From the IMG/VR virus record IMGVR_UViG_2737471833_000002: 64,000 nucleotides of DNA; one strand, written 5' to 3'. Made by a program: the position numbers and the translations under genes. The stretch comes from a virus. Taxonomy: Duplodnaviria; Heunggongvirae; Uroviricota; Caudoviricetes. The notes below the pieces were generated by a model. It ran no database searches and was not told the DNA's origin. It worked only from the letters and a program-made list of their open reading frames with translations. Of the stretch, positions 30,504 through 36,877 are shown piece after piece (the first letter of the stretch is position 1; every line of letters starts with the position of its first letter).

Positions 30504-31401
30504 GCACTGGAAAAACATTACTATTTATAAACTTTCTCGTGAGGCGGATCTGACCGACTTAGAAGATAAAAAGAAAATGATCCTTTTCACGCCATGCGGT
30601 AGTCAGGATATGGCCAAGTTCGGTTTTGTATCTCCATTTGGTGATAATTCCGAAGTTATCGCTATGCATGGAAATGGTTTTATCCTTGTTGAAGCAAAGC
30701 GCGAAACAAAAATTCTTCCCCCGCCGGTTATCCAGCGAGCTATTCAAGAAAAAATTGAAAAACTTGAGCAAGAACAAGCGCGTAAACTGAAGAAAACAGA
30801 GAAGGACTCCCTGAAAGACGAAGTTCTGCATTCTCTTCTGCCACGGGCTTTTTCAAAGTTTTCTGTTATCCAGGCGATCTACGACGGTTCAACTAAACGT
30901 ATCTATATCAATGCCAGCGCGCGGCAGGCAGAGGATATGCTCGCGCTTATGCGTAAATCTCTGGGTTCTCTTCCTGTTGTGCCCCTAAGTGTTGAAAATC
31001 AAATTGAGTTAACGCTGACCGACTGGGTGCGTGATGGTAGTGCTCCGCAGGGATTTCAAATGGGGGATGCGGCAGAACTTAAGGCAGTGCTTGAGGATGG
31101 CGGTATTGCCCGAGTGAAAAAGCAGGACTTGGGAAGTGATGAAATATCCACACACCTGGAAGCTGGCAAGCTCGTCACTAAGTTGGCACTCGACTGGCAG
31201 AACCGCATTAAATTTACACTGGACCATAACTTCAGCCTTACCAGCGTCAAATTTGCGGATGAATTGCTTGAGCAGAACGCTGATATTGATAGTGAAGATG
31301 TTGCGCAGCGACTGGACGCAGATTTCTTCCTGTTGACCAGTGAAATTTCGTGCCTGGTTGATGCTCTGGTAAATGCCCTTGGCGGAGAGGCTAAGCAGTG
31401 A
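30496..31401 (+). CDS. rdgC: RdgC-like recombination-associated protein
   Basis: 302 aa from the internal ATG; near-collinear with E. coli RdgC ([48 protein letters not shown]). Confidence 0.85.
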
Positions 31402-34400
31402 AAGAGCTGTGCTACGGATCTGTTTGCAGTGGAATTGAAGCCGCGAGTATTGCCTGGGAACCGTTGGGTATGCGTCCGGCGTGGTTTGCTGAAATCGAGC
31501 CTTTTCCATCTGCCGTTCTTGCGCTCCGCTGGCCCCATGTCGCCAACCTTGGCGACATGACAAAACTTGCCAAAAAAGTCTTGGCTGGGGAAATCGAATC
31601 CCCTGACGTGCTCGTCGGGGGAACACCATGTTTTACCGCGGGGCATATGGTTCTTTGTAAAAATGGTTATAAACCAATAGAAGATGTTTGCCCTGGCGAT
31701 TACGTAGTCAGTCATCTCGGGCGGTTACAACAAGTAAAAAGAGTTGGTTCAAAAATAGCTAATACGGGGTTACTTAATGCCGTTGGGCAGCCTTTAGGTA
31801 TAAGAACAACCAATGACCATCCCTTCCTGGCTGTTCGGTGGAAAGCCCAAAACACCCGGAAAAATGGCACATATTTTAAGAGAGAGTTGTTGTCTGAACC
31901 GGAATGGCGAGCAGCATGTGATATGCCGGGATATCAATGGTGCGCTCTAACTAATTTCAATATTGCATCTCCAGATATTTGTTCTCGGTTCTTGTCTGAA
32001 GAACAGGCTATGTATCTTGCGGGCGCTTATGTAGGCGATGGATATATTAGGAGATGGAGAGGTAAATCTAAGAAGGCGGTTGTTTTTGGCATAAATTGCC
32101 AGAAATTGAGAAAGTTTCATTGCCACATACCAGAAAACATGTTTTCCGTGGCAAGCGAAATCCGAGGGAGCATCAAAGTAACCTTGAATGATACGTGTTA
32201 TGCCAATTGGCTTAATGAACATTTTGGCGAGTTAAGCCATGCTAAACGTATCCCTGCATGGGTGATGTCGCATCCATTGCGTCATGTGTTTTTACAAGGC
32301 TATCTTGATACTGATGGGACACCAAGTGGTAAAGCGGGATTTAGAATTAATAGTGTTAGTCCTGCGCTTGCTTGGGGCGTTGCGGGGTTGTCACAGACTT
32401 GTGGTTATGTTTCTTCGGTCAGCTTTATTGAAGTTGAGCCCAAAAAAGTGATCGAGGATCGCGTGGTAAATCAACGGGATTATTATCAGGTAACAATCTG
32501 CCCGCAGAAATTGTCACGTAAATCAAGATTGGCTCATGGAATGCTTTTACGAACAGTCAAAGAGTTTAAATCGGTAGGCCTAGATACTGTATACAACATA
32601 GAAGTCGAAGGTGATCATTCCTATATCCTCAATGGTGCGGTGGTCCATAACTGTCAGGCATTCAGTATCGCGGGATTACGTGGTGGGCTTGATGATGAGC
32701 GTGGCGCGCTAACTTTAAAGTATGTGGAGCTTGCAAATGCAATTGACGACAAACGGGCTGAGTCATTTCTCAAACCAGCCGTTATCGTCTGGGAAAATGT
32801 CCCAGGAGTCTTGTCATTGGCAGATAACGCCTTCGGATGTTTCCTTGCCGGATTGGCTGGAGAAGATGTGCCATTTGAACCAGGTGATCGACCTGAATCA
32901 GGAAAAAGCAACGCGTTCTGGCGGTGGGATGGCAAAACCGGTTGCCATGTTCCAAAGTGGCCGCAGTGTGGTTGTATTTATGGACCGCAGCGAAAGGTGG
33001 CCTGGAGAATCCTTGATGCCCAATACTTCGGAGTGGCACAACGACGCCGACGCGTGTTTGTTGTCGCAAGTGCTCGAACAGACCTCGATCCCGCAACGGT
33101 ACTTTTTGAGTTCGAAGGCGTGCGCCGGAATATTGCGCCGAGCCGAAAAAAGAAGGAAATCGCTTCCGCCATTATTGCAAATGGCGCTGCAATCAGTGGC
33201 GAAAGCCTAAATCCATGCCTACACGCTGGCATGTCTCCCGGTATGAAATCGACGAAAGCCGTAAACGGTTTCAGGATGGCGGCATTTGGGGAATATATTG
33301 ACGATGAAACCGCATCGACAGTAAAGGCAAGAGATTTTAAAGATGCCACTGACCTTGCCGTTTTTAGCAGCACAGGAGCAGGTTTTTGGTCAGAAGGGCA
33401 TGGTACATTGCGGGCACGTGAGCAAGAAAGCCATGAGCATCTTGTTACATTGGCTTTTCCTGAGCGTATGAGCGGTACACAACATGCTGCAACTAAGAAT
33501 ACTTCACCATCTCTAATGGCTAAAAATCCAACAGCTGTTTGCTATGAAGTAAGAAACGCAGAAGTAGCTGTCCGCCGTCTTACCCCTGTCGAATGTGAAA
33601 GGCTGCAAGGTTTTCCTGATGGGCATACGTTGATCCCGACGGAAAAGCGTAAAAAAGTTAATTCAGATGAACTGGCATATCTCCGCAATCACTATCCAGA
33701 TTTAAGCGAAGAAGAGGCCGCGATGCTTGCAGCTGACGGACCGCGTTACAAAGCGATCGGCAATAGTATGGCAATACCAGTAATGCGCTGGATTGGCGAT
33801 CGGATTACTAAGGCCGTATGTCGGCAGAAAGAAGGAAGTGAAACAAAAGAGCGAAAAGTTAAACCAGCGACAGAATTCGAACGGTCCATATTCAAATGGG
33901 CTGGTGGAAAATTTGGTGTTCTGGAACAAATCTTTCGCTATTTGCCAGAAGGGAAGCGCCTGATTGAACCTTTCGTTGGTGGCGGAGCTGTCTTCATGAA
34001 TGCCGGATACCAGGAAAATCTGCTAAATGATGTGAATGCTGACCTGATTAACTTTTACAAGACTCTGCAACGCGAGGCGCATTCACTTATCACTCTGGCA
34101 CATCGTTTCTTCCAGGACTACAACACACAGGAAGGATACCTGGCAGTACGGAATGCGTTTAACAAACAAGTCTATGATGATTTACATCGCGCAGCGGCGT
34201 TTTTGTTCCTGAACCGACATTGTTTTAACGGATTGACGCGTTACAACCAGGCCGGTGAGTTCAATGTCGGTTATGGGAAGTATAAAACTCCGTATTTCCC
34301 ATTACAGGAGATGGAAGCCTTCCTCGGTGCGGAAGGGCGGTCTGAGTTTGTATGCGGTGATTTTGCAGCGGTGATTGAAGCTGCCGGAGAAGGAGATGTC

Positions 34401-34685
34401 ATCTTTTGCGATCCGCCGTATGAACCGCTTCCAAATACAGAGGGATTCACGAACTATTCCGGTCATGACTTTAAGTTTGAAGAGCAAAAACGCCTGGTGT
34501 CTCTGTTGACGGATGCTCATCGTCGAGGTGCAAAGGTTCTCATTACTAACAGTGGCGCGCCAAACATCAGAGAGCTTTATCATGACAGTGGCTTCAGAGT
34601 GGAACCTCTTTTTGCCAGACGTTCTGTGTCTTGTAAGGGGGACACTCGAGGTGTAGCTCATGACGTTTTGGGTATATTGCTCTAA
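31398..34685 (+). CDS. dmt: bifunctional DNA methyltransferase (C5-cytosine domain plus Dam-like N6-adenine domain), interrupted by an intein
   Basis: GTG start overlapping the rdgC stop; CSGIEAAS (motif I), [12 protein letters not shown] split by the intein, VVWENVPG (ENV); C-terminal [10 protein letters not shown] and FCDPPYEP; extein 754 aa. Confidence 0.85.
31629..32651 (+). mobile_element. intein (Hint splicing domain plus LAGLIDADG homing endonuclease), 341 aa
   Basis: Begins [28 protein letters not shown]; block B TTNDHPF; [10 protein letters not shown] and [11 protein letters not shown]; ends [21 protein letters not shown] followed by Cys; excision restores [12 protein letters not shown]. 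Confidence 0.8.
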
Positions 34686-34692
34686 TAAATTT
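34676..34692 (+). promoter_or_regulatory. C1-repressor operator (perfect consensus match)
   Basis: ATTGCTCTAATAAATTT 17/17, overlapping the dmt stop codon; upstream of the tRNA/tciA/ban region. Confidence 0.55.
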
Positions 34693-34866
34693 ATTAGTGT
34701 AATATCACCTCAATGAATCGTGATTTATAGAGCGATTTAGCTGTTAGCCGCGACAGGCGCGGCGGTAAGCATGGCTGGGCCTAGTCCTCCCAGACAAACC
34801 ACCGAGTTGCCAGGTTGACCATGCGCCTAAGTGGCAACGCCGAAGTGCGTTACGAGCTTCCAGTTT

Positions 34867-34892
34867 GCCCATCTTCGGGTGGGCGTTTTTTT
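34867..34892 (+). terminator. rho-independent terminator-like hairpin
   Basis: GCCCA-TCTTCGG-TGGGC followed by GTTTTTTT. Confidence 0.45.
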
Positions 34893-35357
34893 CAGGGTTT
34901 TCGTCATGGTTAGCGACTTTGCGGCGGTTTAGAAACTGGCCATTAAAGTAAATGCAAACGATGATCTGATGATGGTAGCGGCCTAAGAAGCCAGATGCCA
35001 CGGGGTATGAGTCGTCCCCCGTCAAAAAATCGACCGCAGAGTGTCCCCGTCTGTGTATTAGGGAACGGGGAGGCACAACAGGTAAGGGCGCTGGTGTGAT
35101 TAACCAGATGAACGAGAAGGGGCCATCTGTTGGTCAGCGTCCTTTCCTGTTGCGTTTTCTTTTCAGCGTAACAGCGGTGCTTAACAGCACTTTGGGTACA
35201 GTTCCACGAATTTACGGGTATATCCCGTCATGCTGAAGGCGCTAATCACGCTGGAAGCCAGGGTTGTGCATCCCCTGTTACCGAATTGCAGCCAGGGCGC
35301 GGTGCGCCGAAAAGCATACGGAGGTGGAAGCCCTCGCCGGAGACGTACCCGGCAAGT

Positions 35358-35433
35358 GATGGTGTAGCTCAGCGGTTAGAGCGGTTGACTGTTAATCAAC
35401 GGGTCGATGGTTCAAATCCATCCACCATCGCCA
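35358..35433 (+). tRNA. tRNA-Asn (anticodon GUU)
   Basis: Cloverleaf: acceptor GATGGTG/CACCATC, D-arm GCTC-AGCGGTTA-GAGC, anticodon loop CTGTTAA, T-loop TTCAAAT, encoded CCA. Confidence 0.85.
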
Positions 35434-35435
35434 AT

Positions 35436-35511
35436 GCCGGTTTAGCTCAGTTGGTAGAGCGCCTGCCTTGTAAGCAGGATGTCAGCGGTTCGAGTCCGTT
35501 AATCGGCACCA
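35436..35511 (+). tRNA. tRNA-Thr (anticodon UGU)
   Basis: Cloverleaf: acceptor GCCGGTT/AATCGGC, anticodon stem CCTGC/GCAGG with loop CTTGTAA, T-loop TTCGAGT, encoded CCA; 2 nt after tRNA-Asn. Confidence 0.85.
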
Positions 35512-36442
35512 GCACAACAGGTAAGGGTATTTTGCGACGTCGGAGATCGCCGAGCTTGGCAGAGGGTTCGAATCCCTACGAAGTACCCTTACCGTTGTGA
35601 TGAATGCGCAGGCTGATGCGCGAAAGACATTGCAGCTATTGCGGAAAAGAGCTGTTCGGCGGGGCAATTAAACGCCCGTGAGAGTCTGAAATAACCGCAA
35701 GCCGGAGATCAGCACCGGTCATCACAACACAACAGGTAAGGGCATTCTCCCTTATGGGGCTTGGCTTAAATGCATCGAGTGCTCTTACCGTTGTGATGAA
35801 GTGCAGCTCTTTGAAGCAACCAGAAGATAAGCATCTGGCTTCACAACATAAACCGCAGGAACGACCAATAAACGGTAGTCCGTATGGAGAACACCCCGTT
35901 GAGGAAGAGGCCTGGCCGGAACCGTAACCGGCACTACAACGTTGAGAACACTGGCGTAACGGGGTCATATCCCAATCTACGAATAAATGTTGCGTTGCAG
36001 CGTGACAACCAGTGTTCTCAACATTGTGGTGAATGCACAGGCTGATGTGCCGCAACTACAGTAGTGCGCGCTTTGCGGGGCTTGCTACAACCCTGTGTTG
36101 GAGTTCAGCACCGACCATCACAGTTTGATTCTCTGGCATGAGCATAACGCTGAAATAAGTCCAGTCTGGTGCGGCCCGATCACCCGCCGTTAGCTCCACG
36201 AAACGGAGCACGTAACAGGTAAGAGCATTCTCCTGTAACGGGTTCATATCCCAATCTACAGGTCCACCAAGAATGCTCTTTCCGTTGCGGTGAATGCGGC
36301 TAAGCGCACGCGGGGAAATGGTTATATCTGTCCATTATTTCTCCTTGTTTCCACGTCCACGGTGGATAACCAGCCAAAGGACACCGGGAGGAACCCGGCA
36401 CCGCAATCTAATAAATATGTCACTTTTATTGAGGGATAACCA

Positions 36443-36877
36443 ATGTTCGGTAAATTGTTCGGCAAGAAAGTCGCTTCTGCAAAAGTAGAGCTGAAAAAAG
36501 TTGAGAATCGCGATCTGATGGAGGCCATTATCGGTGGCTGTTTGTTGGTGTCTGCCGCTGATGGTGAAATCGAAAAAGAAGAAACAGCGAAACTTGATCA
36601 GCTTGTCCGCTCTAATCCGCGTCTTAGTCATTTTGGTAACGAAATTACTGCAACAATTACCCGCTTTACCGAGCAACTTGAAGCTGGCTTCCGTGTTGGT
36701 CGCATGAATATCCTTCGCGAAATTGAAGATATCAAAAACGATCCAAAAGAAGCGGAAGAAGTATTCGTTAACATGCTGACAATTGCAGAAGCGGACGGTG
36801 AAATCGAGCCAGCAGAACACAAAGTACTGGAAGAAGTAGGCCGTCGTTTAGGTCTTCGTGTGGAAGATTATCTGTAA
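36443..36877 (+). CDS. tciA: TerB-family protein (P1 TciA-like)
   Basis: 144 aa with TerB-like repeated ...SAADGEIEKEE... and ...AEADGEIEPAE... motifs; RBS GAGGGA. Confidence 0.65.
   Translation: MFGKLFGKKVASAKVELKKVENRDLMEAIIGGCLLVSAADGEIEKEETAKLDQLVRSNPRLSHFGNEITATITRFTEQLEAGFRVGRMNILREIEDIKNDPKEAEEVFVNMLTIAEADGEIEPAEHKVLEEVGRRLGLRVEDYL

Follow-up and report, generated by a model that had tools for sequence, protein, structure and literature searches.

Introduction

Long, imperfect RNA stems with variable apices separate functional RNAs in polycistronic precursors, as is the case for the RNase III stems of T7 early mRNA, of ribosomal RNA (rRNA) operons and of the intervening sequences in enterobacterial 23S rRNA. 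Prophages also encode small RNAs (sRNAs) such as STnc100 and PasD, which are abundant and bound by Hfq, and the elements considered here may be included, unnamed, in a catalogue from 2023 that lists about 10,000 candidate RNA structures of phages. These elements are five long hairpins, LH1 to LH5, and the transfer RNA (tRNA)-like modules (TLMs) associated with them in a 64,000 nt stretch of viral DNA (IMG/VR record IMGVR_UViG_2737471833_000002), hereafter called the window. The window is that of a P1-type phage or phage-plasmid and carries, by Rfam, the C4 antisense RNA and isrK. The region of the hairpins shares 99.4% identity with Escherichia phage P1 and 100% with a plasmid of E. coli S51. 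According to the annotation of reference P1 (NC_005856), the array lies in the leader of the ban operon, an early operon repressed by C1, and all of its elements are found on the + strand, which is the direction of transcription. The hairpins belong to a widespread family that is absent from Rfam and is common to P1, lambda and a cryptic prophage of K-12. No published description of this family, of the TLM or of their coupling was found in the literature.

Five Long Hairpins on the Transcribed Strand

An earlier note, made from the letters of the DNA alone, had marked five hairpin units in this region. All are present, each folding as a single long hairpin with an energy of −34.5 to −49.2 kcal/mol and a z-score of −4.1 to −6.1, and none of 200 shuffles was as stable. 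In order along the + strand they are LH1 (35074..35154; −41.7 kcal/mol, z −5.0), LH2 (35513..35599; −42.7 kcal/mol, z −4.2), LH3 (35728..35795; −34.5 kcal/mol, z −4.5), LH4 (35932..36031; −49.2 kcal/mol, z −6.1) and LH5 (36211..36289; −35.8 kcal/mol, z −4.1).

A covariance model, R1, run without filters on the 64 kb window, returned exactly five sites, with scores of 51.9, 63.0, 63.6, 46.7 and 62.7 bits for LH1 to LH5, respectively; the next-best match had E = 0.62. Recovery of the window units by R1 is partly by construction, because three of the five sat in its training alignment; the folding z-scores and a repeat finder are independent of the model. The R1 scores are also strand-biased, being 46.7–63.6 bits on the + strand versus 27.0–37.5 bits on the − strand, a difference in favor of the + strand of about 13 to 36 bits per unit.

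The repeat finder recovered the common stem base that had been attributed to the units. Their conserved stem consists of 6 + 13 bp, and in all five units extra pairs prolong it into the apex, so the hairpins provide the near-continuous helix of about two turns (at least 20 bp), on the transcribed strand, that RNase III calls for structurally. LH4, which had been singled out as divergent in sequence and still fully paired, has 23-nt arms that are 91% complementary by the repeat finder despite differing from those of the other units. LH5 has the altered base CGTAAC/GTTGCG.

The interiors are less uniform. LH2 begins 2 nt past the CCA end of tRNA-Thr, exactly as had been described, and the sequence GGTTCGAATCC reported within it is present; its apex holds the T-arm-like GGGTTCGAATCCC. 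This T-arm-like interior is just one among many unrelated ones. The loop motif that had been seen in two units is shared by the fourth and fifth: a 25-nt apex motif, GTAACGGGKTCATATCCCAATCTAC, occurs in LH4 (35956–35980) and LH5 (36235–36259) with 96% identity on different arms, and a diverged form (ACGGGCTCATAACCCAATCCAT) is found in a hairpin of lambdoid phage mEp460, at about 2722–2745. Taken as a whole, the five units are non-coding RNA structures on the transcribed strand of a tRNA-bearing operon.

The Hairpin Family beyond P1

An exact stem-base pattern (ACAACAGGTAAG, 40–70 nt, CGTTGTG) matched at least 120 viral contigs, and the matches listed gave 72 distinct units. Among these, the arms are near-identical (ACAAC, a bulged A, GGTAAGAGCATTG ... 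CAGTGCTCTTWCC, GTTGTG), while the interiors, of 35–50 nt, fall into at least 35 unrelated types. As RNA, the arm consensus of the family reads CACAAC-A-GGUAAGAGCAUUG / CAGUGCUCUUWCC-GUUGUG.

An alignment of 41 units with distinct interiors has 95.1% of its cells paired and changes on both sides in 11 of 19 pairs. None of 500 shuffles reached any of these measures, and a slid partner strand pairs in only 36–60%. Since the search pattern fixed the lower arm, the informative covariation is that of the upper seven pairs and of the added divergent members. One stem position tolerates a U-U mismatch (26/41 sequences), and G-U pairs are frequent, as at one pair where U-G occurs in 32 of 41 sequences, which fits with RNA of this strand. 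Folding and covariance analysis with homologs, the check proposed for the units, thus finds stable hairpins and a covarying stem, and the selection on stem pairing that had been surmised from LH4 holds for the family.

Parts of the region have matches in DNA without annotation from lambdoid, P22-like, Sasha-like and FelixO1-like phages and from 157-kb Klebsiella phages. The phage lambda member (44784–44866; R1 67.5 bits) lies immediately 3' of the 6S RNA terminator tR' and about 320 nt 5' of gene S, and in a scan from the late start point to S it is the longest regular helix. A diverged member (R1 33.7 bits) occurs between ydfC and dicF in the dicB operon of the K-12 prophage Qin (NC_000913.3, about 1649170–1649260). 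Further hairpin or module sites include PL leaders (in mEp460, and in SPN9CC just 5' of the N-like gene) and the space between head genes of phage Sasha. In lytic Taipeivirus Klebsiella phage K751 (157 kb), a stretch of about 2.6 kb without annotated genes (450–3108) is full of similar modules: a tag module resembling transfer-messenger RNA (tmRNA), a long hairpin, a TLM and other conserved hairpins; ARAGORN called no tRNA there. When bacterial genomes were scanned with a pattern of 19 fixed bases (596 Gb), 82 matches were found against about 130 expected by chance, and the credible ones came only from Enterobacterales or from lambda-contaminated contigs (48.4–48.5 kb, low coverage).

Among the matches listed there are 98 distinct hairpin contexts. 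In 38 a promoter and then an intrinsic terminator come before the hairpin, the PR'-tR' layout seen in lambdoid late operons; 14 hairpins come after the CCA end of a tRNA and 9 after the terminal hairpin of a tmRNA-like module. The downstream context was not classifiable in 44 of the 98. In every case examined, the hairpin is oriented in the direction of transcription. The units had been taken as a local family tied to the tRNA genes; co-transcription with tRNAs stands, whereas the family extends beyond P1 and its tRNA genes.

Rfam (release 15) was applied to the window, mEp460 and 32 related loci at gathering and permissive thresholds. Gathering scores were reached only by tRNAs, C4, isrK and int-alpA. 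The Rfam search suggested for the units therefore yielded no family for the hairpins, whose below-threshold matches were only to microRNA precursor models, as expected from a generic hairpin shape. Neither hairpins nor TLMs matched any family in the 32 related loci or in mEp460.

tRNA-like Modules Coupled to the Hairpins

The stretches between the units are conserved tRNA-shaped modules, the acceptor-like stem of which uses a strand of the hairpin. In this two-part arrangement the 3' arm of the hairpin overlaps with the 5' strand of the module, or with that of a genuine tRNA. A TLM comprises two near-invariant hairpins, C and B, among its four parts: a closing stem, the 5' strand (b) of which coincides in part with the 3' base of the long hairpin; hairpin C (consensus GCGCAGGCUGAUGCGC), 2–3 nt past strand b; a variable insert of 30–200 nt, of which there are about 29 types; and hairpin B (GCCGG AGAUCAGCA CCGGC), which abuts the 3' strand (c) of the closing stem.

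Four modules were delineated in the window, all on the + strand. TLM2 (35594..35728) has the closing stem GTTGTGATG/CATCACAAC, hairpin C at 35606–35621 (GCGCAGGCTGATGCGC) and hairpin B at 35702–35718 (CCGGAGATCAGCACCGG), and is about 98% identical to segments of the PL leaders of lambdoid phages. The short TLM3 (35790..35847) is closed by GTTGTGATG/CTTCACAAC and contains the hairpin CCAGAAGATAAGCATCTGG; its counterpart in P22-like phage SPN9CC, closed by GATGCGATG/CATCGCATC, is located just 5' of the N-like gene, and another is found in phage Sasha. TLM4 (36023..36124), recognized from the direct-repeat families D1 and D2 together with its fold, carries a hairpin C variant (GCACAGGCTGATGTGC, 36035–36050), hairpin B GTTGGAGTTCAGCACCGAC (36097–36115) and the 3' strand CATCACAGT. 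TLM5 (36284..36407), directly 5' of tciA, is closed by GTTGCGGTG/CACCGCAAT and is STnc100-like: window positions 36286–36405 align with positions 31–147 of the 206 of Rfam model RF02076 at 38 bits (E = 3e-6). The gathering score is 47, so TLM5 falls short of membership in STnc100.

The placement of TLM3-type modules ahead of an N-like gene, together with their boxA-like GCTCTTT, led us to consider a nut site or put-type antiterminator. This reading was dropped: the modules are found in lytic phages and within structural operons as well, and the hairpins come after terminators, not before them.

A search with hairpin C alone retrieved, among the matches listed, 102 distinct TLM sites, including contigs from soil and other metagenomes. 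Closing stems at these sites vary in sequence and remain complementary, for example GGAGCCG/CGGCTCC, ATTGGAT/ATCCAAT, GTGATCT/AGATCAC and TAAGCTG/CAGCTTA. When strands b and c are defined purely by their location with respect to hairpins C and B, pairing is seen at 6.82 of 8 positions, compared with 4.23 ± 0.18 for shuffled partners; a single position shows as many as four pair types, and several positions reach that number. Of the closing stem, 7 bp are conserved and stack directly on the 5-bp stem of hairpin B, giving 12 bp in total, the length of a tRNA acceptor/T minihelix. In some contigs canonical D and T arms replace hairpins C and B, and in three contigs a genuine tRNA-Arg takes the place of the TLM.

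Six nt in the loop of hairpin C are complementary to six in that of hairpin B (GCUGAU/AUCAGC). Two compensating variants were found (GGUCGAU with UUCGACA, and AGACUGAU with AGAUCAGUA); as two such events are few, we infer a loop-loop contact between the hairpins from this complementarity rather than regard it as established. A permissive, generic TLM finder gave 1095 matches, mostly noise, and served only to list loop combinations. The Rfam models for tRNA, tmRNA and YrlA did not match the TLMs. The sole match to YrlA (RF02553), at 25.6 bits against a gathering score of 69, lies over two true tRNAs and not over a hairpin or TLM.

At 35 of the 102 sites anchored on hairpin C, a long hairpin (at least 17/18 bp) ends no more than 10 nt 5' of the TLM, where the background expectation is 0.9%. 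These 35 hairpins have 33 different arm sequences in the same placement, and so it is the hairpin as a structure in a fixed position that is kept, not merely a sequence. Strand b, the 3' base of the hairpin, is complementary both to strand a, the 5' base of the hairpin, and to strand c, and hence the a-b and b-c helices are mutually exclusive. Both pairings covary. In LH5, for example, b reads GUUGCG in place of GUUGUG, and both of its partners differ accordingly, a having CGUAAC for CACAAC and c having CACCGCAAU for CACCACAAC. In minimum-energy folds, LH2, LH5 and lambda adopt the b-c pairing, whereas LH3 and LH4 adopt a-b. When the entire lambda leader is folded, the minimum-energy and centroid structures differ exactly on a-b versus b-c.

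The array is variable among relatives. TLM2 and LH3 together (about 215 bp, 35594–35795) are extra relative to reference P1, and the alignment to the reference splits into two pieces covering 86% of the query. In P1-like plasmids the array differs by whole cassettes, with tRNA-Tyr, tRNA-Arg, tRNA-Ser or 'OTHER' modules, and with TLM2 plus LH3 present or absent. Recombination between conserved arms appears to lengthen and shorten the array.

The ban Operon Leader and the tmRNA-like Module

In reference P1 the leader runs from the operator and promoter through a 'dicF-like region', a terminator, tRNA-Asn, tRNA-Thr and a stretch of about 900 nt annotated with plp and upl, to tciA, tciB, tciC, a tRNA with anticodon CAT, and ban. 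The operon containing the array starts in the window with the C1 operator Oban and promoter Pban (34676..34710, + strand), where ATTGCTCTAATAAATTT can be read in the sequence; at the homologous site, the annotation of reference P1 shows operator Obanab and promoters P1ban and P2ban. The 'dicF-like region' (34740..34893, + strand), a misc_feature in P1, is homologous to a stretch upstream of dicF in K-12 Qin. At its end (34866–34893) is a strong intrinsic terminator, the sole strong one that a terminator scan found in the leader, and a scan of the array found no internal promoters or terminators. By ARAGORN and the Rfam tRNA model, the 64 kb window has only three tRNAs: tRNA-Asn(GTT) at 35358–35433 (+ strand; 74.5 bits), tRNA-Thr(TGT) at 35436–35511 (+ strand; 72.9 bits) and tRNA-Met(CAT). 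The first protein-coding gene 3' of the array, from the list of open reading frames (ORFs) and the P1 annotation, is tciA (TerB-like; 36443..36877, + strand).

Between LH1 and tRNA-Asn is a 200-nt segment (35155–35357) with sequence blocks, such as GTTACCGAATTGCAGCC, that are common to segments 5' of long hairpins in unrelated prophage contigs, and it is probably a further conserved RNA module.

Upstream of LH1 lies a tmRNA-like module (34900..35072, + strand) with a tag ORF, a stop codon in a hairpin loop, a PK2-like pseudoknot and a terminal hairpin. The tag ORF (34954–34986) follows an A-rich stretch, has GCA as its resume codon and encodes the 10-residue tag ANDDLMMVAA*. Related phage loci specify ten different tags, all of 10 residues and of the AND... 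form (e.g., ANDEQFLAVA, ANDNTFLAVA), and the second pseudoknot stem covaries (GUCG/CGAC, CCGA/UCGG, CCAG/CUGG, CCAA/UUGG). ARAGORN did not call the module as tmRNA at its default setting, and at a relaxed 80% threshold it reported a weak tRNA-like domain without G3-U70; the Rfam tmRNA models gave 13–23 bits, against gathering scores of 47–84. An alanine-type acceptor (G3-U70 stem) was not found in the module. If it is what it resembles, the module would represent a phage intervention in ribosome rescue, which would be of wide interest.

Further upstream, the ORF for the Dmt methyltransferase (31398–34685) specifies 1095 aa, while the gene in reference P1 (66412–68676) specifies about 754 aa. 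An intein (Pfam Hint_2 and LAGLIDADG_3) accounts for the difference; it interrupts the C5-methylase domain at its catalytic PC motif (GGTP|C...VVHN|CQAFS).

Proposed Function and Alternative Explanations

As an explanation of the array we favor, at about an even chance of being right, hairpins that act as structured leaders and spacers of the sense strand, which would be cut by RNase III, compete with closure of the acceptor stem, and release tRNAs and TLMs from a polycistronic transcript. In the sequence of events and with the nucleases that we infer, the full hairpin would form first, during transcription, as a quasi-continuous helix of at least 19–22 bp and a substrate for host RNase III. 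Cleavage by RNase III, or displacement of strand a by strand c, would free strand b to close the 7-bp acceptor-like stem on the 5-bp T-like stem. The closed TLM or tRNA could then be trimmed like a pre-tRNA, by RNase P at its 5' side and by exonucleases at its 3' side, and the hairpin stubs left over may protect the flanking RNA ends. Several observations speak for this proposal: the stability of the hairpins and their uniqueness in the window, the covariation of the stem, the sense-strand bias, the consistent placement relative to transcription, the coupling of hairpin and TLM independently of hairpin sequence, the presence of tRNA-Arg at the TLM position, the swapping of tRNA cassettes, the covariation of both a-b and b-c, and the pairing of the TLM acceptor-like stem when its strands are defined by position. 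Family members also lie in two transcripts that, by the titles of two papers, are reportedly processed by RNase III: the Q-dependent late transcript of lambda (Daniels and colleagues, in 1988) and that of the dicB operon (Faubladier and colleagues, in 1990); the cuts mapped there may fall within the hairpins. The earlier note had offered tRNA-derived pseudogenes, small structured RNAs and processing or stability elements as possibilities; processing or stability elements co-transcribed with the tRNAs are favored, and pseudogenes are not, there being no cloverleaf and no match to the tRNA model.

Other points weigh against the proposal. With b-c closed, only 13 bp and the apical pairs of the hairpin would remain, a short helix for RNase III unless it stacks coaxially on the TLM stem. 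LH1 has no canonical TLM behind it, and the 3' tails of TLMs are weakly tRNA-like, with ACC in 14 of 92. A pure processing signal also leaves unexplained the strong conservation of the arms in enterobacterial phages around unrelated interiors, the maintained size and diversity of those interiors, and the retention of the 25-nt apex motif across different arms (LH4, LH5 and the mEp460 hairpin).

The mutual exclusion of a-b and b-c, with both pairings kept through sequence change and both states present in the predicted ensembles, could also be read as a folding gate that operates without RNase III, and the conserved 7 + 5 bp stack of tRNA minihelix length fits such a gate. The hairpin would be an 'anti-acceptor' that sequesters b while the TLM insert is transcribed, until c displaces a; the switch would time or limit processing by RNase P and prevent misfolding with flanking mRNA. 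However, a gate would not need a helix as long as 19 bp, and hairpins that follow a tRNA or terminator with no canonical TLM behind them (LH1, and the 44 of 98 downstream contexts that could not be classified) are left unexplained. We consider a gate acting on its own unlikely; it is compatible with, and not exclusive of, processing by RNase III. The features left over by a pure processing signal (arm conservation, interior size and diversity, and the apex motif) keep alive another possibility, in which the arms present a hypervariable apical RNA that is excised as a stable hairpin of about 50–60 nt and serves as a trans-acting regulator, decoy or anti-defence RNA, with the TLMs likewise carrying cargo at the position of the anticodon arm. 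The unrelated interiors between near-identical arms, the many types of TLM insert, the apex motif conserved on different arms, and the one cargo type that resembles a tmRNA tag module all agree with this. So does the origin of Hfq-bound, abundant STnc100 and PasD in the same genomic neighborhood, with TLM5 resembling STnc100 below threshold. Against it, complementarity of the P1 interiors to the rest of the window is not above chance (a search of the window for antisense targets or repeats of the five interiors gave nothing beyond shuffles, save the motif of LH4 and LH5), and the majority of interiors lack the conservation expected of a functional sequence. We rate it as rather improbable. More broadly, hairpin and TLM could together make up a new and widespread class of modular phage RNA, with a tRNA-shaped scaffold, a 6-bp loop-loop contact, an anti-acceptor gate, and stable RNAs with hypervariable inserts, including the tmRNA-like tag; the diversity of the inserts would arise from an arms race with the host (e.g., as decoys or hijackers of translation or RNA surveillance). 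Such a class would span P1, lambda, P22-like phages, Sashavirus, lytic Taipeivirus and uncultured soil phages. We put this forward tentatively, as something to be doubted more than believed. If the inserts are functional, the module would be a natural 'tRNA scaffold' for RNA cargo.

Explanations at the level of DNA, tRNA or protein fare worse. Inverted-repeat arms could be recombination sites (attC-like, or linkers of modules) for the exchange of tRNA and RNA cassettes, since the arrays of close relatives differ in length by entire modules, the boundaries of which fall within the repeated arms, and conserved arms around unrelated interiors give an attC-like layout. However, the G-U pairs and the strand asymmetry argue for single-stranded sense RNA, wholly different arms keep the hairpin and its place relative to the TLM, and the arm cores depart from the attC R''/R' consensus. 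Homologous recombination at any conserved sequence explains the insertions and deletions, so that a dedicated site is unneeded, and we regard one as very improbable. Two specific candidates of this kind were rejected. In an integron attC site the arms should fit RYYYAAC/GTTRRRY, which GCACAAC and GTTGTGA miss, and the cassettes here are structured RNAs of 58–135 nt or tRNAs rather than ORFs (no search aimed at an integrase was made). Miniature inverted-repeat elements of the ERIC, Correia or REP type are contradicted by the unrelated interiors (35 types), by the clustering of the five window copies in one orientation, and by the way that other members follow transcription. Real tRNAs are nearby, and LH2 and one subfamily of interiors hold a T-arm-like GAGTTCGACTC or GGGTTCGAATCCC, which might suggest degenerate tRNA genes. 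ARAGORN found none on the units and RF00005 none even at E ≤ 10, most interiors lack any tRNA feature, and the conserved part is a 19-bp helix and not a cloverleaf; this origin is scarcely credible. Lastly, the region might encode the minus-strand proteins Plp and Upl, which are annotated coding sequences (CDSs) in NC_005856; the window has minus-strand ORFs of 139 and 63 aa. The six ORFs over the region have no Pfam match at threshold, in line with the earlier judgement that they do not look protein-like; plp overlaps trnT on the opposite strand in reference P1; and the RefSeq pipeline places no CDS over the region in most P1-like plasmids. On these three grounds coding by plp and upl is very unlikely. 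In addition, the module insertion of about 215 bp alters the ORF in the window, and conservation follows the paired arms instead of codons. A protein-coding role has next to no probability, and plp and upl are almost certainly spurious genes. On the map of a model phage, two probably spurious genes give way to an ordered array of RNA modules.

Comparison with Known Systems

The closest counterpart of the P1 hairpins is that of the lambda late leader, a member of the same sequence-and-structure family with identical arms and, behind it, a stem that GTTGTGCTG/CAGCACAAC close. Lambda has a single copy, in its late operon, whereas P1 has five, in an early, repressor-controlled operon and interleaved with tRNAs. 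The K-12 Qin dicB operon is similar in having a family member between ydfC and dicF and an STnc100-like TLM between the dicF terminator and dicB (about 1649440–1649585). It differs in that P1 lacks the DicF sRNA sequence itself, the 'dicF-like region' of P1 matching the segment upstream of dicF.

In the bacterial Y RNA a long stem, bound by Ro, encloses a tRNA-like domain; the two are nested there, while the hairpin and TLM here lie side by side. With tRNA, tmRNA and YrlA, the TLM shares a 7-bp acceptor-like stem on a 5-bp stem and hairpins at the D and T positions with loops that can pair, and its large insert at the position of the anticodon arm recalls the topology of tmRNA. It differs in that its loops are Watson-Crick complementary and not canonical D and T loops, and in having no anticodon arm, G3-U70 pair or regular CCA end. 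The likeness to STnc100 and PasD lies in the alignment of TLM5, which takes in the closing stem and the 3' hairpin, and in location, as these sRNAs are found near the Q antiterminator and lysis genes of lambdoid prophages, where hairpin-TLM modules also occur. TLM5 is nevertheless sub-threshold, and the other TLMs and all of the hairpins are without a match.

The RNase III stems of T7 early mRNA, rRNA operons and 23S rRNA intervening sequences have no sequence relation to the hairpins. Long imperfect stems with freely variable apices, within polycistronic precursors, are common to both, and the hairpins differ in sharing a strand with a tRNA-like acceptor stem. By analogy of function, the hairpins would most resemble RNase III processing stems and tRNA-like punctuation elements. 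What the comparison suggests to be new is the coupling of a processing-type hairpin to a tRNA-shaped module via a common strand, which offers a concrete and testable route for freeing tRNAs and small RNAs from long phage operons without destroying the mRNA. Lambda, P1 and a cryptic prophage of K-12 thus share an uncatalogued structured RNA that is half of a two-part module present in hundreds of viral contigs.

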